From an uncultured delta proteobacterium (GTDB lineage: Bacteria > Myxococcota > Myxococcia > Myxococcales > Anaeromyxobacteraceae): DNA of 64,000 nt. Every line of letters starts with the position of its first letter. Position 1 is the stretch's first letter. Below, in pieces: positions 923 through 16,224 of the stretch. The stretch lies in contig CAVYBH010000012.1 in assembly GCA_963766715.1 (NCBI GenBank), forward strand, positions 1 through 64,000. The letters run 5' to 3'. The notes beneath the pieces are model-generated. The model was given only the letters and a program-made list of their open reading frames with translations. It had not been told where the DNA came from and ran no database searches. The position numbers and the translations under genes were made by a program.

Positions 923-2365
923 ATGACCCGACCGAACGCCAGGAACAAGCTGAGGTCCCCCCCGAAGGACGGCGCGCCGGTCCCGGTGGCCCCGGGCGCA
1001 GGGGGGCAGTTCCCGTCGTGGAAGGACCGCTACGCCGCGGGCAAGGCCTTGCGACAGTCCTGCCCCCGGGAGTCGCACGCGGCCTGGAAGGCCCCGCCCG
1101 CTCGGGCGGACCCGATTGAGATGGTCCTCGCGGCAGAGAAGGGGCGGCTGCCGGAGTTGCTCCCGCTCCGCCACGGCCGCATGGCCCGTTCCGCATTCAC
1201 GTTCTACCGGGGATCGGCCCTTCCGATGGCGGCCGACCTGGCCACCACTCCGACGTCGGGAATCCGCGTCCAGTGCTGCGGGGACGCCCACCTCTCCAAC
1301 TTCGGTGGATTCGCGACGCCGGAGCGGAGGATCATCTTCTCCATCAACGACCTCGACGAGACCCTTCCGGCTCCATGGGAGTGGGACGTCAAGCGCCTCG
1401 CCGCGAGCTTCGTCGTGGCCTGCCGGGACAACGACCTGAAGGACGCGGCGGCCAGGGGCGTGGTGACGACCTGCGTCCGCACCTACCGCGAGGCGATGGC
1501 CGGGTACAGCAAGCTGAAGACGCTGGAGCTCTGGTACGAGTCGCTGGAGGCCCGTGACCTGCTGCGCACCATCAAGGATCCGGCGGTGCACCGGCGAGTC
1601 GTCGAGCGCCTGGAGAAGGAGAGGGGGAAGAGCAAGGGCGAGGAGATTTTCCCGAAGCTCGCGGCGCACAGGGGGGACCTGCCCGTCATCAAGGACCAGC
1701 TCCCGACCATCTTCCACCACGAGGATCACACTCCCGGCGAGATCCACCAGGCCGTCCGGGACACGATTGCCGGATACCGCGCCACGCTGCCGTCCGCCTA
1801 CCAGTCCTTGCTCGACCGCTACGAGCTGCGGGACGCCGCCATCAAGGTGGTGGGGATTGGGAGCGTCGGGACGTCGTGCTGGGTGCTGCTCTTCATGGCC
1901 GGCGAGGGCGATCCCCTCTTCCTCCAGGTCAAGGAGGCGCGTCCCTCCGTGCTGGAGCGCTACGCGGGGAAGAGCGCCTTCCCGAACCAGGGCCAGCGCG
2001 TGGTGGACGGATATCGACGCATGCAGCCGGCGAGCGACATGTTCCTCGGGTGGACCCGGGGCCCGAAGCGTGACTTTTTCGTGCGCCAGCTCCGGGACAT
2101 CAAGGTCAGCCCCCGGATTGAGACCTTCGACGAGACCGTGATGGACCAGTACGCCACCTGGTGCGGGAAGGCCCTGGCGCTGTCCCACGCCCGCTCCGGG
2201 CGCTCCGCGGAGCTCAGCGGGTACATGGGGAAGAGCGACACGTTCGACGAGGCCATCGCGTCATTCTCGATGGCCTATGCGGATCAGAACGAGAAGGACC
2301 ACGCGGCACTCGAGCGGGCGGTCCGCAAGGGAAAGGTGAAGGCGATCTTCGAAGAGGATCGGTGA
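923..2365 (+). CDS. DUF2252 family protein (kinase-like fold)
   Basis: Motifs RHGRMARSAFTFYRGSA, GDAHLSNFG, INDLDE, KVVGIGSVG, FLQVKEA; GGAGG RBS. Confidence 0.9.
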   Translation: MTRPNARNKLRSPPKDGAPVPVAPGAGGQFPSWKDRYAAGKALRQSCPRESHAAWKAPPARADPIEMVLAAEKGRLPELLPLRHGRMARSAFTFYRGSALPMAADLATTPTSGIRVQCCGDAHLSNFGGFATPERRIIFSINDLDETLPAPWEWDVKRLAASFVVACRDNDLKDAAARGVVTTCVRTYREAMAGYSKLKTLELWYESLEARDLLRTIKDPAVHRRVVERLEKERGKSKGEEIFPKLAAHRGDLPVIKDQLPTIFHHEDHTPGEIHQAVRDTIAGYRATLPSAYQSLLDRYELRDAAIKVVGIGSVGTSCWVLLFMAGEGDPLFLQVKEARPSVLERYAGKSAFPNQGQRVVDGYRRMQPASDMFLGWTRGPKRDFFVRQLRDIKVSPRIETFDETVMDQYATWCGKALALSHARSGRSAELSGYMGKSDTFDEAIASFSMAYADQNEKDHAALERAVRKGKVKAIFEEDR

Positions 2366-2806
2366 TGGCGCCCAGCGTTCGCACCCCCGCCCGGGCACCG
2401 GGAGACCTTGCCCGAGGCTATCGGTGGGCTGCCGCGGCCTGGTCGGATGCGCGTCGGAGGATCACCTCCACGGCGGCGCAACTTCCCGCGTCGCTCAGCG
2501 CCCGCTCGGCGACGATGGCACCCGCCCGGATGAAGAGCTCGGCGCCGGGGGCGGGGAGGGTGCTCGGCACTCTGCCCGCAGTCCACCAGCAGTCCAGGCG
2601 TCGAGGTCGGGTGCCACATCGTGCGGCGCGTGCGATCCAGTCGGATCCCCCGCTCCAACGAAATCAGCAGCTTGACGCTCCGTGCACTCCGGTGAAGCGC
2701 GTGCGATCGGCCCCGGCTCGATTCGAGCCGAAGCTGCGCTCCGGCCTCTTCGTCCACGCGTTCTAGCGGAGCGCCCCGTCCGTCCGGGCGCCCCGCTCCC
2801 CGACGC

Positions 2807-3970
2807 TCACGGCTTGTCGATTCGCCCCGGATCTCGCCGGCCGGGTGGGCGGGGGTGTGGGCGTTGAAGTAGAGGGCTCCCGCACTGAAGTCCGAGACCT
2901 GCACCGCGGTGATGGGCGCCGCGCCATCGGGGGCGACCCACAGGTTCGGGCCGCCCGCCAGCGGCACGATGATCGACCCGGGTGTCCCGCGCGCGGCGTC
3001 GTGGACGTGCGCCGCCGTCGCGGTGAGCCCCGCCGTCGCGATGAACCCGGCGACCGCGCCGGAGGTGGTGTTCACCGCGAGCACGCCGGCCCCGAAGGCG
3101 GTCGTCGTGACGGCCGGCGTCTCCTGGGCGCCGGACATGGAGGCGAGCCTCAGCGTTCCGCCCTTGTCGAGCTGGCCGCGGATCTCTCCGCCGGGGTTCG
3201 CCGCCGTGTGCGCGTTGTAGTAGAGGGAGCCGGCCGCGAAGTCCGCCACCTGGGCCGTGGTGAGCGCCGCGGCGCCGTCCGGGACGACCCAGAGGTTCGG
3301 CCCGCCGGCGAGCGGAACGATGACCGCTCCGGGCGTCCCGCGCGCGGCGTCGTGGACGTGCGCGGCCGTCGCCGTGAGCCCGGTGGTGTTGATGAACCCG
3401 GCGACCGCCCCGGTGGTCGGGTCCACCGCCAGGATGCCGGCGCCCACCGCCGTCGACGCGTTCGCCGGCGTCTCCTGGGCGCCGGAGAGCGACGCGAGCC
3501 TCACCGTCCCGGTCTTGTCGATCTGTCCGCGGATCTCCCCGGCCGGGGTTGGCCGCGGTGTGCGCGTTGAAGTAGAGCTTGCCCGCGGTGAAGTCCACGA
3601 TCTGGGCCGCCGTCAGCGGAGTCGCGCCATCGGGGACCACCCACACGTCGGGCCCGCCGGTGAGCGGGACGAGGATCGCGCCTGGCGTTCCCCGCGCGCC
3701 CGTGTGGACGTGCGCCGCGGTCGCGGCGAGCCCCGTGGTCTGGATGAACCCCGAGACCCTTCCGGATCCCAGGTCGACGGCCAGGATGCCGGCTCCCACG
3801 GCGGCCGACGTGGTGGCGGGGGTCTCCTGGGCCCCGTCGAGCGTCGCGAACAGGACGGCTACCCCCGGGGGCGGGGCGGACCCCGAGCCCGACGACGAGG
3901 AGTCGCCACACCCTGCGGCGATGGAAGCGGTGAGAACGGCGAGCAGCGCGACTCGCGCGCATGGCGTCAT
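2807..3970 (-). CDS. Lipoprotein with three tandem CHRD domains (compensating frameshifts near 3541 and 2825)
   Basis: Lipobox IAAGC; three copies of L.GAQETP..AHVH..RG.PG..LY.NAHT...P.GEIRG, spread over ORFs 2807..3970 and 2284..3504. Confidence 0.85.
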   Translation of the reverse strand: MTPCARVALLAVLTASIAAGCGDSSSSGSGSAPPPGVAVLFATLDGAQETPATTSAAVGAGILAVDLGSGRVSGFIQTTGLAATAAHVHTGARGTPGAILVPLTGGPDVWVVPDGATPLTAAQIVDFTAGKLYFNAHTAANPGRGDPRTDRQDRDGEARVALRRPGDAGERVDGGGRRHPGGGPDHRGGRRVHQHHRAHGDGRARPRRRARDARSGHRSARRRAEPLGRPGRRRGAHHGPGGGLRGRLPLLQRAHGGEPRRRDPRPARQGRNAEARLHVRRPGDAGRHDDRLRGRRARGEHHLRRGRRVHRDGGAHRDGGARPRRRARDTRVDHRAAGGRPEPVGRPRWRGAHHRGAGLGLQCGSPLLQRPHPRPPGRRDPGRIDKP

Positions 3971-5364: not shown

Positions 5365-5772
5365 TCAGGGCCGGGGCATCTCGGACTCGCGCACGAACCG
5401 CGCGAGCGCCATGTCGTGCGTCCGCACGTGCTCGGCGAACCAGTGGCGCAGCGCGCTGGCGAAGGACTTGGTGGGCTGGACGTTGCCGGTCGCGAACTCG
5501 GCCCGGACCTGGTCGATCTGGTCGATCAGCTTGGCGTGCTCGAGCTGGTGGCGCGCGAACTCCTGGTAGGCGTAGAGCCGCATCATGATCTCCTCGGTCG
5601 CGAAGTGGACCCGCGCGAACTCGGAGAGCTGCTGCAGCAGGGCCTCCACCTGGGTTCGGGGCGCCGTGGCCACGGCTCCCTCGAGCGCCCGCACGAGGCC
5701 GAGCATGAGGTCGTGCTCGGAGTCGATCTCCTGCACCCCCACCTCGACGCTGTCCTTGTCCTTCCTCGACAT
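5365..5772 (-). CDS. Single-domain bacteriohemerythrin
   Basis: VGVQEIDSEH, HFATEE, HQLEH, HVRTHD: complete diiron ligand set. Confidence 0.9.
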   Translation of the reverse strand: MSRKDKDSVEVGVQEIDSEHDLMLGLVRALEGAVATAPRTQVEALLQQLSEFARVHFATEEIMMRLYAYQEFARHQLEHAKLIDQIDQVRAEFATGNVQPTKSFASALRHWFAEHVRTHDMALARFVRESEMPRP

Positions 5773-5853: not shown

Positions 5854-6936
5854 GTGCGCATCCTCTACGGGGTGGTCGGGGAGGGAATGGGGCACGCCAT
5901 CCGGTCCCGGGTGGTGCTCGACGAGCTCGCCCGCCGTCACGAGCTCCAGGTGGTGGTGTCCGGAAGGGCCCACGACTACCTCAAGGCCATCGAGAACGAG
6001 CGCCTGGGCGTGAACCGGATCTGGGGCCTGTCCATCGTCTACGAGGACAACCAGGTCCGGAACTTCCGGACCTTGCTCGCCAACGTGAAGGGGGCGCTGG
6101 TCGAGGGCGGGTGGCCGGAGAACATCCGCGCCTTCTTCGACCTGGCCGAGCGGTTCCGGCCCGACGTGGTGATCAGCGACTTCGAGTCGTGGAGCTACCT
6201 CTTCGCGAAGGCGCAGGGGCTCCCCGTCATCTCCATCGACAACCAGCAGATCGTGTCCCGCTGCGACATCGCGCCCGAGGTCGTGGCCGGGCACGAGGCG
6301 GAATACCAGCTCACCCGGGCCATCGTGAAGGCCAAGCTGCCCGGCTGCTTCCACTACCTGGTGACCACGTTCTTCTACCCCCCGGTCGTGAAGCCGCGGA
6401 CCACGCTCGTCCCGCCCATCCTGCGCCCGCGAATCCTCCAGGCTCGCCCGGAGGACGGGGATCACCTGCTCGTCTACCAGACGTCCACGAGCTACGGAGA
6501 CCTGCTCGAACGGCTGAAGGAGACGGGCGTCGAGTGCCGGATCTACGGCGTCCGGCGCGGCATCGAGAAGGAGGAGCAGGACGGAAGGCTCCGGTTCATG
6601 CCCTTCTCCGACGAGGGCTTCGTCGAGGACCTCCGCACCGCGCGCGGGGTCGTCTCGAACGGCGGGTTCACGCTCCTGGGCGAGGCGGTGTACCTGCGCC
6701 GGCCGGTCCTCTCGGTCCCCGTGGGCAAGCAGTTCGAGCAGGTCGTGAACGCGCGATATCTGGAGAGGGAAGGGTACGGGATGGCCGCCGACGAGGTCAC
6801 CGGAGCGGTCCTCGGCGAGTTCCTCGCGCGTGCCCCCGAGCTTCGCCGGAACCTGGCCGCCTACCACCAGGAAGGGAACGAGCGGACGTTCGCGAGCCTG
6901 GAGGAGAACCTCGCGGCCGCCGTCGCCGGTCCCTGA
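5854..6936 (+). CDS. GT-B glycosyltransferase, MJ1255/VC2487 family
   Basis: Starts VRILYGVVGEGMGHA; ISDFE, SIDNQ, NGGFTLLGEA, QFEQVVNA. Confidence 0.9.
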   Translation: MRILYGVVGEGMGHAIRSRVVLDELARRHELQVVVSGRAHDYLKAIENERLGVNRIWGLSIVYEDNQVRNFRTLLANVKGALVEGGWPENIRAFFDLAERFRPDVVISDFESWSYLFAKAQGLPVISIDNQQIVSRCDIAPEVVAGHEAEYQLTRAIVKAKLPGCFHYLVTTFFYPPVVKPRTTLVPPILRPRILQARPEDGDHLLVYQTSTSYGDLLERLKETGVECRIYGVRRGIEKEEQDGRLRFMPFSDEGFVEDLRTARGVVSNGGFTLLGEAVYLRRPVLSVPVGKQFEQVVNARYLEREGYGMAADEVTGAVLGEFLARAPELRRNLAAYHQEGNERTFASLEENLAAAVAGP

Positions 6937-6978
6937 AAAAAGCGCGACCCCGTGCGTTCCGAGAACGCAGCGGGGCCG
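6936..6978 (-). terminator. Intrinsic terminator (hairpin plus six U)
   Basis: GC-rich 15-bp stem followed by T6 on the minus strand (A6 at 6936-6941). Confidence 0.75.
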
Positions 6979-7012
6979 CAGCGACGGCCGGAGGGGGGTT
7001 GGCCATCGCTGA
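6936..7012 (-). ncRNA. Candidate small RNA: two hairpins plus U-tract, C-rich loop
   Basis: Minus-strand RNA: CAGCGAUGGCC-AACCCCCCUCC-GGCCGUCGCUG, then CGGCCCCG-C-UGCGUUC-UCG-GAACGCA-CGGGGUCG-CGC-UUUUUU. The G.U pairs work only on the minus strand. Confidence 0.65.
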
Positions 7013-7022
7013 CTCACCCTTT

Positions 7023-7039
7023 TGCAGGGGGCGGGCCAG
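7023..7039 (-). promoter_or_regulatory. Sigma54 (-24/-12) promoter
   Basis: Minus strand CTGGCCCGCCCCCTGCA with exact GG-N10-GC spacing. Predicted +1 near 7012, at the foot of hairpin 1. Confidence 0.6.
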
Positions 7040-7237
7040 CGCTTCGAGTCGCCAAGTCCTGGAATCACGACGGTGAACGAGGCGTACGTACCGGGTCCAT
7101 CTGACCCGCGGGTGTCGATCGCCGAGCGCGAGCCACGGCCCCGCGGGCCCCCCGAATTTGCTCTCGAGCCACCTTGCTCCCTGCGCCCACCCTGCTACGG
7201 TCAGCGGCGGCCGTGGAACTCGCGGCGGGAGGCGGCG

Positions 7238-7450
7238 ATGGGCGTGGAGGCGATGGCGATGAGTCCGGTCGTGGACGTTTCTGGTCTGGTCGATGCGGTC
7301 ATCCGGCAGCACGGCGTGCACCCCAGCGAGCAGGTGAGGTCGCTCCTCGCGGCGGCCGCCGAGCAGCGGATGCGCGAGCACGGGGAATCGCTCGGTATCG
7401 CCGTGCCGCGCGCCATGGCGGCGCTGGTCACGGCGGCCCACCGGCGCTGA
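7238..7450 (+). CDS. Small hypothetical protein (70 aa)
   Basis: GGAGG RBS before ATG 7238; helical Ala-rich sequence with normal codon bias. Confidence 0.55.
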   Translation: MGVEAMAMSPVVDVSGLVDAVIRQHGVHPSEQVRSLLAAAAEQRMREHGESLGIAVPRAMAALVTAAHRR

Positions 7451-7466
7451 GGAAGGCCGGCCGGAG

Positions 7467-8033
7467 TCACTTCCCGGCCAGCAGCGCCTCCTTGAGGTCC
7501 TCGAGCCCTCCATCGGTGGGCTTCGGGCCGAGCCAGACGCGGAACATCGCGTCGGCGAAGTCCTTGCCCTCGACGGTGACGCCCTTCGTGCCCTCGACAC
7601 CCACGCTGGTGCCCTGGCCCGGGACGTAGACGACGGTCATCACCTGGCCCTCCTTGAACTCGGCGGGGAAGGCGGCCTCGAGGATCTTCAGGCGGGGCGC
7701 CAGCGAGGCGGCCTGGGTGGGGGAGTTGCTCTCGATGCCGTCCTTCAGCGCGCCCAGCATGCTCGCCTTGTCCACGTCGCGGAGCAGGTTCATCCGGATC
7801 GCCTTGGGCGCGTCGAGCGCGACGATGGCCGCCGCGTCGGTCGACCGCTGCGTCACGTAGAGCGCGGCCACGTAGACCTTCACCTTCAGGAAGGTCTTGG
7901 TGCGGAGGCCGGCCCCGTTCAGCAGGAGCGCCTTGCCATCGACGGGGATCGAGTCGGGCACCTTCACGCCGGCGACCTCGAGCGCGGAGGCGGGAAGGGC
8001 GGCGAGCAGCAGGGCGAGGGCGACGCTTCGCAT
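7467..8033 (-). CDS. Secreted chalcone isomerase-fold protein (Chalcone_3)
   Basis: Signal peptide; [26 protein letters not shown]. Confidence 0.9.
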
Positions 8034-9687: not shown

Positions 9688-10438
9688 AGTCCATCTCCCG
9701 CGAGTCGAGCGCCCCCCGGGCCACCGCGGCGAGGTCCTCCCGCAACTGCTCCCTCGTGGCGGGGGAGCAGAGCACGACGTCGACGCTCGGGCTGGAGAGG
9801 CAGAACCGGTAGCACTCCGCGGCGGTGGCCGGGCGCTCCGGCCATCTGCGCGGGGGCCGGAGCAGCCTGCGCCAGGCCGTGGCGGTGTACGCGATCACCG
9901 CGGGACGGCGGCGCGCCAGGTGCGGGAAGACGTCGACCTCCGCGCCGGGGTGGGCCGCGTTGTACCGGATCATCAGCAGGTCGAGCGCCGAGTCCTCGGC
10001 CAGGCGGCCGGCCCTCGGCCGATCGTGGATCGACACGCCGATGGCGCGGACCTTCCCTTCCTCCCGGAGCCGCGTGAGCTCCTCCAGGTTCGCGTCGGTG
10101 AGCGCCGACGAGACGCCGACCCAGTAGAGCTGGAACACGTCGAGGTAGTCGGTGCCGAGCGTCCGCAGCGCCGCCTCCACGCGGCGCCGCAGCGAGCCCG
10201 CGAACCACCCGAAGGTCGGGCCGGTCGCCACGACGTAGCGCTCCCGGTCGCGGGCGATCGCGTCGCGCAGCGGCGCCACGAGCTTGCGGGCCGTCGGGTT
10301 CCAGAAGACGTAGTTCACCTCGCCGTCGAGCGCCTCGCGGATCCCGGCGTCGTCGAGTCCGTGGGAGACGGCCAGCCCGAGGCGGAAGACCCGCTTGCGG
10401 AGCGCCGGCACGTCGCGGTGCTGGAAGTCGTCGGCCAT
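9653..10438 (-). CDS. Aldo/keto reductase
   Basis: LRTLGTDYLDVFQL, EGKVRAIGVSIH, RYNAAH. Confidence 0.88.
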   Translation of the reverse strand: MADDFQHRDVPALRKRVFRLGLAVSHGLDDAGIREALDGEVNYVFWNPTARKLVAPLRDAIARDRERYVVATGPTFGWFAGSLRRRVEAALRTLGTDYLDVFQLYWVGVSSALTDANLEELTRLREEGKVRAIGVSIHDRPRAGRLAEDSALDLLMIRYNAAHPGAEVDVFPHLARRRPAVIAYTATAWRRLLRPPRRWPERPATAAECYRFCLSSPSVDVVLCSPATREQLREDLAAVARGALDSREMDFMRRLGRAVHG

Positions 10439-10472
10439 GAGGCTCCCCGGACGGTGGTGTATAGGAAGAGAG

Positions 10473-12059
10473 GTGAAGGCCGCCATTCTCGCCCTGTCGC
10501 TGTCGGCCGCAACCTTGGCGACGCCCGAGGGCGGTCCGCCGGCGCGCCCCTCCGCGCCGGGCCCCGAGAGCGTGAGCCCGGCCGCGCTGTCGGCCATCAC
10601 CCGCTTCCTGTCGTCGGACCTGCTCGGGGGGCGAGGGACCGCCACGCGAGGCCACGAGATCGCGGCGCTCTACGTGGCCACCCAGATGCAGGCCGTCGGC
10701 CTCGAGCCCGCGGCCGGCGACGGCCTCTGGGAGCAGGCGGTGCCGATACGCGCCTGGCGGGTGGATCCCGCCGGGGAGAGCCTCGTCTTCCACGGGCCCG
10801 CCCAGCCGCCCTTGCGGCTCGCCCGCGGGGTGGACTTCGTGACCCTCTCCGACGGGGAGCACAGCGAGGTGGAGCTGGACGGCGCGCTGGCCTTCGTCGG
10901 CTACGGCATCTCCGCACCCGAGTACGCCTACGACGACCTGAAGGGCGTGGATCTCACCGGGAAGATCGCCGTCGCCCTCTGGGGAGCGCCCTCGTCCGAC
11001 CGCGCCAACTTCTTCCCTCCCGCTCCTCGCGCGCGTGTACGCCGACACCGTCGGAAAGCTGGCGCGCCTCCGCGCCCGCGGCGCGGCGGGGGTGATCCTC
11101 GTCTACACGCCGGATGCCGAGGAGTCGCGAACCTGGGAGGATCTCGTCGGCGAGGCCCGGCTCGAGGGCATGGCGTGGGTGGAGGGGGCGCGGCCGGGGG
11201 ACACGGTCTCCGGGCTGCCGGCCCGGGTCGTGCTCTCGCCCAGGGGACTCGAGAAGGTGGCGGTGGCGGCCGGCGTGACCGGCGGCGCCCGGGCCATCTT
11301 CGAGAAGGCGGCGGCCAACCGCCTGGCGGCCCAGGACTGGCCGCTCAAGGCCCGCATCGGATCGCGCGCGGAGCTCCGCCAGGCGCGTTCGGTGAACGTC
11401 CTCGGGATCCTGCGGGGGTCGGACCCGGTGCTCTCCCGGGAGACGGTGGTGGTGACCGCGCACCTCGACGACGGCGTCCGGGACGACGCGGTGGGCGTGG
11501 CGGTGCTCCTCGAGGTGGCGCGGGCGCTCGCCGCGCTGCCCCGGCGCCCGGCCCGGTCGGTGCTCTTCGCGGCGACCACCGGCGAGGAGCAGGGCCTCGT
11601 CGGGTCCTCCTTCCTGGCGCGTCATCCGGTGGTGGACCCGGACGGCATCGTCGCCTGCCTGGACGTCGACGGGGCGCCGGCAGCGGTCCCGTTCACGGAC
11701 GCCGTCGCGCGGGGCGCCGCACCACTCCACCCTCGGTGAATCGGTGCGCGCCGCCGCGGATTCGCTGGGCGTGAACCTCTCGCCGGATCCCGTCCCCCCG
11801 CGCCGGGGCCTTCGTCCGCTCGGACGCGTGGAGCTTCGTCCGGCTCGGGGTGCCGTCCGTCCACGTCGCGCCGGCGTCGAGCGGAGCGGACCGGCCCCGG
11901 GACGGATGGGAGGCGGGATGGCGATGGGAGGACACCGCCCGGTTCGCGCGGCTGCAGCTGCTCCTGACGATGACCGTGGCGGACGGGGCGAAGCGCCCGG
12001 CCTGGATCCCGGGCGACTTCTTCGAGCGGTTCGCGCCGAAGGCGCCGGCGGGGCGGTAG
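10473..12059 (+). CDS. M28 family peptidase with PA domain (frameshifts near 11020, 11720, 11805)
   Basis: FLSSDLLGGRGT, FVGYGISAPE..YDD, TAHLD, TTGEEQGL, RSD.WSF..GVP. Confidence 0.8.
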
Positions 12060-12069
12060 CGCTCCCGCG

Positions 12070-12502
12070 TCAGCTTCGCCGGAGCGACGGGTGGGTGCCC
12101 GGCGGGCTGGCTCTCCGCTGGAGGTGACGAGCCAGCGGTCGATCGTTCACCTCCATGTGGAAGCGGAGCCACTGCTGCAGCCGGCCGGAGGCCCACTCCG
12201 TGACGCGCGGGCGTGACGCCGGACTGGCCGACCTCGACGGCGGAGGCGTGGAGGTCCTGGAGGAACAGGTCGTGGGCGGCCCGGTGGGCGGCGCGGTCGG
12301 GGTAGGCGGTCTGCTCCATGGCCTCCTCCTCGAAGGCGAAGTGGCGCGCGCTGGCCTCGACGAGCCCCTCGAGGATGGCGGCCGCCTCGCGATCGCGCCG
12401 CGCCTGCGTGGCGGCGGCCAGGTCGGCCGCGCGCTGGAGCAGGTCGGCGTGCGGGGCGTCGAGCGCGGGAACGCCGAGGACGGGTCCTTCGATCTGGCTC
12501 AT
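12070..12502 (-). CDS. Single-domain bacteriohemerythrin (frameshift near 12210)
   Basis: LGVPALDAPH, HFAFEE, HRAAH and, after the shift, WLRFHMEVND; ATGA overlap with the upstream oxidoreductase. Confidence 0.82.
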
Positions 12503-14122
12503 GGGGTACCTCCGGTGACGGCGCGCGCGGCGCGCAGCTCCTTCACGATGGCGGAGAAGGTGTTCTCCTTGAGGATGGCGGAGGCGCAGAGCGCCGCCCC
12601 GGCCAGCGCCCCGCTCACGCCGCTCATGGCGGCGTCGGCGCCGGTCAGGAACAGCCCGGGGAGCGGCGTGCGGATCGGGGATCTCGGAGGCGAAGCGGCG
12701 GGGCGTGGCCGCGAGCCCGTAGATCTCCCCGCGGGGGTGCCCCGCGAAGTGACGGGTGGACAGCGGGGTGGAGAGCTCGGCCACCTCGATCCGACCCCTG
12801 ACCTGGGGGAGATGTGACTCGACCACGGCCAGGAGGCGCTCCCGCAGCCGCTCCTTGAGGTCGTGATACCCCGGTTCGCGGTGTTGCCAGCGCGAGCCCT
12901 CGAACGCGGCGAAGGGCGCCCACGGCCCGACGGTGACCGCCTCGAGCGTGGCCTTCCCGGGGAAGCGGTCGAGGAAGGTCGGGTCCTTCGCCGAGGCGAA
13001 GGAGAGGTACACGAAGGGGAACGGCGCGTCCGGGTCCTGCTCGAAACGCTCGAAGCTCCGGTCCAGGTCGGGGCCGTCGTAGATCCAGAGGTTCGTCCCG
13101 GCGAGCCCGAGCTCGGCTGCGGTCCCACGAAGGCCGACGTAGAGGGACAGGTGGGCGTGCGAGGCCGGGATGCCGTCCATCGAGGGGAAGCGCGGGCGCC
13201 ATTCGGGAGGGACGAGCCGGTTCACGGTGGTGGCCCAGCCGGCGTCGCTGACCACGACGGGGGCGCGCACGACGCTTCCGCCGGCGAGCCGGACGCCGGT
13301 CGCGACCCCGTCCTCCACCAGCACGCGCTCCACGTCGGCCAGCACCGCGACGTGCCCGCCGGCCGACTCGATGACCGGCAGGATGGTCTCGGCGATGCGG
13401 CTCGATCCTCCGACGGGATACGACGCGCCGTCGATGTAGTGCTCGGCGACGACGGCGTGGTTCCCGAAGCTTCCCAGGGAGGGCGGCAGCCCGTAGTCCC
13501 CGTACTGCCCTGCCAGGACCGCGCGGAGCACCGGATCCCGGACGTGGCTGGCGATGACCTCCCCGGTGGTCTTCCGGGCGTGTCGCAGGAACCCTCGGCG
13601 CATGAGGCCGCCGAGCAGGGCCGCCACCCGAGGCGGCAGCGCCCGGCTCGCAAAGTAGGGCCCGGCCGCCCGTGCACAGGCCTTCACCTGCGAGAGGTAT
13701 CGCCGGATGCCGTCGCGCTCGCCCGGGAAGGCCGACGCCAGCCCCTCGACGAATCGCTCCTCCCCGGCGACGAGGTCGAAGGAGCGGCCGCCCACGACGA
13801 TGCGGTCGTACACGTCCGGGAGCGGCGCCCAGCGGAGCTCCCCCTTCGTGACGTAGTCGAAGAGCCGTCGCACCCCGCCCCGGCCGCTCCCGACCTTCCC
13901 GACGTAGTGGACGCCCACGTCCCACTCGAAGCCGTCGCGCTCGAAGGTGTGGGTGAATCCACCCGCAGTGTAGTGCCGCTCGAGCACCAGCACCCGGAGC
14001 CCGCGGCGTCGGGCCAGCATCGCGGCCAGCCCGAGGCCGCCGATGCCGGATCCCACCACCACCACGTCGAAGGGACCTTCGACCGGTTCCTGCTTCCACG
14101 AGGTGCCGATGCGCTTCGCCAA
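12499..14122 (-). CDS. FAD-dependent oxidoreductase, phytoene desaturase/retinol saturase-like (frameshift near 12680)
   Basis: GSGIGG, LERHYTAGGFTHTF, WDVGVHY, ELSTPLST, GLFLTGAD. Confidence 0.88.
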
Positions 14123-15795: not shown

Positions 15796-16224
15796 TCAGC
15801 GGCGACGCGGGTGCGGAGGAAGGGCCTGTCCCGGGTCGGGAGCGTGCCCGAGCGCGAACTTGCCGAAGCCGAAGTCGCTCGCGATGGCGTGGAAGCGGAG
15901 CAGCTCGGGGATCCCCTGGAGGGCCCACCGGGCCAGCTCGGGCGTCAGGTCGCCGACCGCCAGGCGGCGCTCGAAGCGCTGGACCTGGAGGTGAAGGAGG
16001 GCGTGCGATTCCGCGTGGCGGGCGACGAGCGACCAGCCGCGCGCGCGCATGAGCGCCTCCTCCTCGGCGAAGTGCTCGCCGAGCATCTCGGAGAGGAGGC
16101 ACGTCCAGCCGCGGGCGTCGACGAGGTCCCGGGTCCGCACCGCCTGCGCGAGCTCGCGAAGGCAGCGATCCAGCTCGCGGTGCGGCTGGTCGAGCGGCGG
16201 GAACCCCGTCGGCACGAACGGCAT
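15796..16224 (-). CDS. Single-domain bacteriohemerythrin
   Basis: [28 protein letters not shown]. Confidence 0.85.

Follow-up and report, generated by a model that had tools for sequence, protein, structure and literature searches.

The window analysed here is a stretch of 64,000 nucleotides from an uncultured member of the Anaeromyxobacteraceae (genus g1, whose members live in soil and sediment; genome G000), in which a glycosyltransferase gene and a 70-codon plus-strand ORF that we judge to be real bound a gap carrying predicted features on the minus strand (Table 1). The 70-codon ORF has its own conserved sigma70-like promoter at 7174-7201, and its product gave no match in Pfam, NCBIfam or the Atlas. 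In-frame searches recovered the ORF in genera g1, g6 and g11, and relatives of the protein were covered by contigs in the RNA runs X4 and X5. On the minus strand, the closest gene has its end at 7467, at a distance of 455 nt, in agreement with the approximately 450 nt given by a first-pass annotation of this DNA. Within 17 kb of the RNA, the minus strand carries three hemerythrin-like coding stretches (5365-5772, ~12254-12478 and ~15856-16215), and the first of these is divergent from the glycosyltransferase gene in g1, g6 and g11. Elsewhere in the window, the genes at 2284-3970, 10395-11774 and 11693-14122 (a repeat-domain protein, a peptidase-like gene and an oxidoreductase running into hemerythrin) look frameshift-split, probably as a result of assembly errors.

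Table 1. Features of the small RNA locus and of a related locus outside the window
Feature	Position	Strand	Remarks
Convergent glycosyltransferase, MJ1255/VC2487 family	5854..6936	+	PF13528, TIGR00661
Small RNA	6936..7012	-	77 nt here, 71-77 nt in relatives; start predicted
Intrinsic terminator	6936..6979	-	Hairpin 6979-6944 with conserved UUCUCGGAA top, then U6 at 6941-6936
Hairpin 1	6980..7010	-	10-bp stem; loop 7000-6990, A(A/C)CCCCCCUCC, putative seed
Sigma54 -24/-12 promoter, GG-N10-GC	7023..7039	-	TGGC and TGCA with fixed spacing
IHF-like site, TGATT-N6-TT	7052..7068	-	Between operator and promoter; predicted
Putative activator operator, ACCC-N2-GGGTC-N5-GACCC	7093..7113	-	Predicted site for a sigma54 enhancer-binding protein
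70-aa protein, no known family	7238..7450	+	Divergent neighbour; synteny marker, outside the cassette
Probable Pxr counterpart	G000:C12:599170-599456, RNA 599299-599456	+	Outside the window; found by operator-repeat scan

The predicted RNA consists of hairpin 1 with the terminator hairpin stacked directly behind it, and the last base of its U6 tract falls within the stop codon of the glycosyltransferase gene that converges on it. The loop of hairpin 1 is 11 nt long (AACCCCCCUCC) and has an unpaired probability of at least 0.9 in the ensemble fold. The GG-N10-GC element (7039-7023), the two hairpins, the U6 tract and the IHF-like segment all lay where the first-pass annotation had placed them. 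Its description of an 11-bp first hairpin was correct as to place and loop, but the stem has 10 bp in the MFE fold, the eleventh pair and the first terminator-stem pair being in competition. The minus strand folded with a z-score of -4.1 (0 of 200 shuffles as good), as compared to -1.8 for the plus strand (10 of 200). Across the aligned copies, 98.2% of 339 stem cells were paired on the minus strand, while controls slid along the alignment reached 31-52%. At 11 of the 25 pairs, a total of 24 cells held G.U pairs that would read as mismatches (A.C) on the plus strand; this fixes the minus strand as the RNA strand and bears out an argument already made from the single sequence. Compensatory stem changes had also been anticipated. 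Pairing was indeed kept, in the terminator stem in 98% of cells and with one compensatory C-G to U-A change, but only two double-sided changes were found and 7-14 of 500 shuffles reached the observed values, so that covariation proper is weak. Indels of one and two bases separate the copies, which excludes a reading frame for the RNA. The element is single-copy in the genome, which rules out the genome-wide repeat that had been raised as a concern, and Rfam gave chance-level matches only (mir-3943 and ar7, E 1.6-8.7). None of four RNA runs covered positions 6888-7197; this comparison used contigs only, and the organism itself was barely present in these runs. We infer transcription of the RNA from its sequence features.

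Upstream of the RNA, the operator, the IHF-like site and the -24/-12 element follow one another in the order that is typical of a sigma54 promoter with an enhancer. TGGC and TGCA were 100% identical and invariantly spaced in 14 copies, with 58% identity in the bases between them. The motif TGGC-N8-TGCW occurs 522 times in the genome, and therefore the promoter motif alone is at chance level, which its conservation is not. The operator, which the first-pass annotation had not contained, showed 81% pairwise identity in its palindrome versus 40% in the adjoining spacer, and preceded the -24 GG by 76-78 nt in all 12 genus copies examined. Identity was 68% in the TGATT-N6-TT stretch, which we take to be a putative IHF site from its consensus, versus 40-46% in its flanks. 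The same operator was found 76 nt before sigma54 boxes in genomes G034 and G027. With respect to a wider regulon, the next-best operator-plus-promoter site in this genome scored 25.5 versus 39.9 for the RNA locus, and in five other genomes a sigma54 box accompanied 2 of 18 operator-like sites. Possible members of an operator regulon are a gene of this genome at G000:C14:81634-81520 (minus strand), whose N-terminus is presumably PilZ-like, and a response-regulator gene of G027 (G027:C1:1140253) that has the operator at the same 76-nt spacing. Two activators were considered and rejected: PxrR, because the operator upstream of Pxr differs from that of the RNA, and NmpR, because the site described for it, GCGCA-N5-TGCGC (PMC11841059), differs as well. 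The genome encodes about 20 enhancer-binding proteins in all.

A BLAST search over 61 genomes (E <= 3e-12) found the RNA in 10 of the 13 further g1 genomes and no convincing copy outside this genus. When a covariance model was run on 92 genomes of the family, with 52 candidates per genome scored, the 11 carriers received 85-105 bits and all others at most 31 bits. Under strict filters, the family-wide model search left 15 weak matches outside the genus (21-31 bits); those that were inspected were coding or terminator-like, with the exception of L059. In metagenomes, 8 of 67 pattern matches were full-length members, and viral contigs contained no match to the RNA. Among the 119 stretches listed by a pattern scan of a species-genome collection, 80 were scored with the model and 4 were full-length, as compared to 6 of 119 by script. 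The breadth of the RNA outside the family is thus judged from incomplete scans. Over 14 copies, pairwise identity was 91% for the RNA, 96% for the loop (10 of 11 positions invariant) and 100% for the -24/-12 element, the conservation in relatives that had been anticipated for promoter and loop. It was 40% between operator and IHF-like site, 46% between IHF-like site and promoter, 36% from -12 to +1 and 40% downstream of the RNA. The top of the terminator hairpin is likewise conserved in sequence.

Two of the g1 genomes lack the RNA at an otherwise intact locus; each is sister to a carrier in the tree, and therefore their absences are secondary losses, natural knock-outs of the element. In G008, operator, promoter and RNA are all gone from a locus that keeps the 70-codon ORF. 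In G013, the RNA is gone and operator, IHF-like site and promoter are kept, so that the promoter points antisense into the glycosyltransferase gene. The third such genome, G006, is 74% complete. The conserved promoter, loop and stems, the G.U pairs that fix the strand and the lack of an Rfam match support a standalone, sigma54-driven RNA of about 75 nt belonging to a new family, as the first-pass annotation had proposed for an RNA of about 77 nt. The RNA combines a predicted promoter of its own, a terminator, the absence of coding capacity and a conserved seed complementary to the Shine-Dalgarno (SD) sequence, the set of properties by which trans-acting anti-SD sRNAs are recognized; the SD and anti-SD sequences used here are those that we assume for this host, and the 3' end of the 16S gene was not found in this assembly. 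We regard it as a genuine sRNA family that has not been described before, of a known kind and with a narrow range. In the literature searched, mostly open-access papers, we found no published sRNA of the Anaeromyxobacteraceae.

The first-pass annotation had considered a distant analogue of Pxr, the sigma54-driven RNA of Myxococcus and the Cystobacterineae (RF01812) that is described as lying behind pxrK-pxrR and needing its first loop (PMC5684412, PMC5568312). From what is described of Pxr, the two RNAs share a sigma54 promoter with an enhancer region, a C-rich loop on the 5' hairpin, a 3' terminator hairpin and hosts in which Hfq was not found (PMC5684412), and two-hairpin Pxr paralogues exist in Cystobacter (PMC5568312). 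They differ in length (75 versus 109 nt), in the loop, which is A(A/C)CCCCCCUCC and ends in CCUCC here, whereas that of Pxr is UUCCCCCC(CCAC) and ends in CCACC, and in the operator (GGGTC-N5-GACCC here versus TTTCA-N-TGAAA upstream of Pxr). Moreover, Pxr adjoins pxrKR, before a NADH dehydrogenase gene, whereas the RNA of the window lies elsewhere. Pxr is further characterized by its processing into a shorter form and its role in controlling the development of fruiting bodies. RF01812, whose gathering cut-off is 80 bits, had no match at E<=10 in 6400-7700, and its best match in the genome was located elsewhere and reached 18.4 bits; of 24 genomes tested, 3 gave scores above the cut-off, and these belong to a different family, while none of the 9 tested from the present family did so. 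A syntenic kinase-activator pair resembling pxrK-pxrR (58% identity) is present on another contig, and no sigma54 box or C-loop RNA was seen on inspection of the gap behind it. The model of the window RNA scored Pxr at 15 bits and off-register. Orthology to Pxr is thus not supported, and because another RNA in the same genome fits Pxr better, the window RNA is a Pxr analogue in design only.

The cuckoo or alpha-r14 RNAs of Alphaproteobacteria (NfeR1, CcsR; RF02344) share the hairpin with an open anti-SD loop; they are described as Hfq-independent, with occlusion of the ribosome-binding site as the proposed mode of action (PMC4615179, PMC10746234). These RNAs have 2-4 adjacent hairpins, each with CCUCCUCCC (PMC4615179), whereas the RNA studied here has one seed hairpin whose loop reads ACCCCCCUCC, comes from a different phylum and is predicted to be sigma54-driven. 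The ar14 model (RF02344, cut-off 58.8 bits) found no match in the window stretch, L003 or L010. With its one C-rich loop and different motif, the RNA does not belong to this family.

The RNA of this genome that fits Pxr better (Table 1) was found by scanning for TTTCA/TGAAA repeats, and its 5' end is like that of Pxr. Its unit comprises a tandem TTTCA-N4-TGAAA operator like that upstream of Pxr, an IHF-like site and a sigma54 box, followed by an RNA of about 140 nt with a 25-bp first stem, a C-rich loop and numerous stem substitutions that leave the pairing intact. It is convergent on a gene that we take to be MutL-like from its N-terminus. RNAs of this type (L360-L370, L401-L421) were present in 21 of the 92 family genomes, which represent six genera; none of the 37 g8 genomes and none of the 13 g10 genomes had one. 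The operator and the same downstream gene accompanied all 10 distant copies inspected. Its model picked Pxr as the best match in both Pxr loci (20.5 and 17.2 bits) and did not pick the window RNA; the Rfam Pxr model gave no match to it. On these sequence grounds, it is the probable counterpart of Pxr in non-fruiting relatives of Myxococcus.

Further C-loop RNAs were encountered. A two-hairpin RNA with the loops UCCCCCCUCCCU and CUCCCAUUCC is convergent on a LEA_2 gene in g8 and g10 (L242-L246, L343-L347). It has a strong sigma54 box in four genomes, is divergent from an XylR-type activator in two genomes, and lacks such a box in the other copies; it shows a weak, sub-threshold likeness to Rfam ar14, and its model found it in 0 of 8 g1 genomes searched. 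At G016:C25:1-197 (minus strand, L394), a window-like operator and a strong sigma54 box precede a C-loop RNA at the end of the contig; its first loop resembles that of Pxr, and its second is likewise rich in C. In L107 (Desulfuromonadaceae), positions 3063-2983 of the minus strand hold two adjacent hairpins, each with a CCCCCCCUCC loop, followed by U7 and preceded by a sigma70-like promoter, a cuckoo-like RNA outside Alphaproteobacteria. Finally, a further C-loop hairpin with a terminator at G000:C17:~75460-75380 (minus strand; L340) was not found in any of five congeners searched.

An origin for the window RNA, absent from the first-pass annotation, is suggested by the sister genus g6, in which all three genomes have a bacteriohemerythrin gene (NF033749) in the same slot and on the same strand. 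The upstream regions of these genes carry a homologous operator, an IHF-like stretch and a sigma54 box. When a promoter matrix trained on g1 alone was applied to the 3813 gene-upstream regions of this genome as background, only 0 (G034), 6 (G026) and 33 (G018) of them outranked the g6 upstream regions. Behind the hemerythrin gene, G018 has a C-rich hairpin and terminator directly following the stop codon, which itself sits in the foot of hairpin 1 (27.6 bits with the RNA model), and G034 has a terminator with a degraded first part (24.3 bits). These were the two best matches to the RNA model in 18 kb, and by plain alignment to the RNA only 5 (G018) and 45 (G034) of 3808 gene-downstream regions ranked higher. 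G026 has no RNA-like 3'UTR, 2748 of the 3808 background regions matching the RNA at least as well. When the whole genomes of G018 and G034 were searched with the model, both 3'UTRs were missed and an unrelated 25-bit match came up in G018; the 3'UTR link therefore leans on position together with moderate similarity. The comparison nevertheless shows, as judged from sequence, that promoter and 3'UTR are homologous between the g1 RNA and the g6 hemerythrin unit.

The glycosyltransferase tree (13 rows, quick method) gave ((g1,g6),g11) with support of 97/97, and both genomes of the outgroup g11 share the gene order with the slot empty. The g6 hemerythrins formed a clade of their own, with no g1 member among the 30 best matches in 92 genomes. 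Because the slot is empty in g11, one insertion of a unit and one deletion make the simplest history: a bacteriohemerythrin transcription unit would have entered the slot in the common ancestor of g1 and g6, and g1 would then have lost the leader and coding sequence, joining the promoter to the structured 3'UTR and leaving a standalone RNA. We consider it likely that the hemerythrin unit came first and that its coding sequence was lost later in g1, rather than the reverse. General reviews mention UTR origins of sRNAs (PMC13501541). Like the general class of 3'UTR-derived sRNAs, the window RNA has a seed hairpin and what would be the mRNA's own terminator, with homology to a hemerythrin 3'UTR in the sister genus. 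In contrast to that class, here the parent coding sequence is gone and the promoter of the mRNA would drive the UTR directly, with neither mRNA processing nor an internal promoter involved. A limited literature search brought up no example of an sRNA remaining after its parent gene had lost the coding sequence.

We propose that an enhancer-binding protein would bind the operator, IHF would bend the DNA, and sigma54 polymerase would make an RNA of about 75 nt that ends at its own terminator and keeps the near-invariant loop single-stranded. By analogy with alpha-r14/NfeR1 and with the essential C-rich loop of Pxr, this loop may pair with GGAGG(G)n ribosome-binding sites and block translation without Hfq. 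Oxygen or redox is the probable inducing signal, given that the g6 counterpart of this promoter drives a gene for an oxygen-binding protein. KhpA/B were detected in 5 of 5 genomes; neither Hfq nor CsrA turned up in any of the five. Of 3813 predicted genes, 123 had GGAGGG, 38 GGAGGGG and 7 GGAGGGGG at -25..+3, so that the loop would select a subset of G-extended SD sequences; these counts are rough, because gene starts came from a home-made caller (3813 genes, 71% coding) applied to an assembly with frameshifts. The best single target site in the genome, at a CsbD-like gene, was rejected because the only close orthologue that we found lacks the site. GGAGGG is present at the ribosome-binding site of a paralogous hemerythrin gene in 7 of 7 orthologues, but also in genomes without the RNA, and the site ranks only in the top 12% by energy; as a candidate target this gene is a weak lead. 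None of three cold-shock leaders had a good loop-pairing site, and site searches of this genome with orthologue checks revealed no specific conserved target. A CsrB/RsmZ-type sponge was rejected, given a single GGA on the disfavoured strand and the lack of CsrA in the five genomes.

The history may also have run in the opposite direction, with the standalone sRNA ancestral and, in g6, a hemerythrin gene inserted between its promoter and body, after which the RNA decayed. Such a course would fit the fading of the 3'UTR across g6, from near-complete in G018 through partial in G034 to absent in G026. Moreover, the operator and sigma54 box of G016 (genus g4) drive a different C-loop RNA at another locus, and thus the operator regulon may have held sRNAs earlier. 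It would, however, require two successive insertions into a slot that is empty in g11, the second of them precisely between +1 and hairpin 1, and the hemerythrin stop codon of G018 lies in the foot of that hairpin; we regard this order of events as unlikely. That the RNA is a functionless relic of the deleted hemerythrin gene, as two independent losses among 13 congeners might suggest, is very improbable, since the RNA is 91% identical and its promoter elements are intact, whereas the spacers are at about 40% and the neighbouring protein at 75-81%.

With regard to function, the RNA might be made and act by binding a protein (for instance one with a KH domain, a cold-shock protein or a partner that it has in common with Pxr-like RNAs) and not by pairing with ribosome-binding sites. 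No conserved target was found, KhpA/B are present and the terminator top is conserved in sequence as well. The predicted pairing of Pxr with pxrA uses the third stem-loop, and the direct targets of Pxr and the direct action of its C-rich loop are described as unsettled (PMC11928866), which keeps protein binding by the C-loop a live rival. Against it, an open-loop CCUCC is the established seed of the Hfq-independent alpha-r14/NfeR1 RNAs (PMC10746234), CsrA is lacking and the strand with a GGA loop is disfavoured, and we give protein binding a low probability. Lower still is that of a purely cis-acting element, either a bidirectional terminator (a reading that the first-pass annotation had also raised) or an RNA antisense to the 3'-terminal part of the glycosyltransferase mRNA. 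The RNA is always convergent on this gene, which lies downstream of every copy (11 of 11 from genomes, 8 of 8 from metagenomes), its U6 overlaps the stop codon here, and G013 keeps the promoter without the RNA. However, neither an antisense RNA nor a terminator needs a fixed loop, yet 10 of 11 loop bases are invariant, and the distance from the RNA to the glycosyltransferase stop codon varies by about 65 nt among copies. In addition, G008 and both g11 genomes keep the glycosyltransferase gene without such hairpins, and the alignment of copies contained no conserved U-tract on the plus strand. Overall, we think it reasonably probable that the RNA represents a former hemerythrin promoter and 3'UTR, acting in trans on ribosome-binding sites.

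How sRNAs are born is an open question, and pairs of states before and after such an event are rare. Three neighbouring genera here offer an empty slot (g11), a hemerythrin gene with a structured 3'UTR (g6) and a promoter-plus-UTR RNA without the gene (g1), a series that makes testable the route in which the coding part is lost and the tail becomes a regulator. The operator provides a defined site for the predicted sigma54 activator. A broader reading, which we hold to be evenly balanced between right and wrong, is that a regulatory RNA has been caught at birth, with an oxygen-responsive hemerythrin output turned into a riboregulator, that it counts among at least three separately wired sigma54 C-loop RNAs, of which one resembles the missing Pxr orthologue, and that the Pxr design is older than fruiting. 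Because C-loop RNAs occur in the non-fruiting Anaeromyxobacteraceae, this design would predate the control of fruiting bodies and would have been reused under different activators. The probable Pxr counterpart, by its presence in relatives of Myxococcus that do not fruit, would give the best-studied myxobacterial sRNA an earlier origin.
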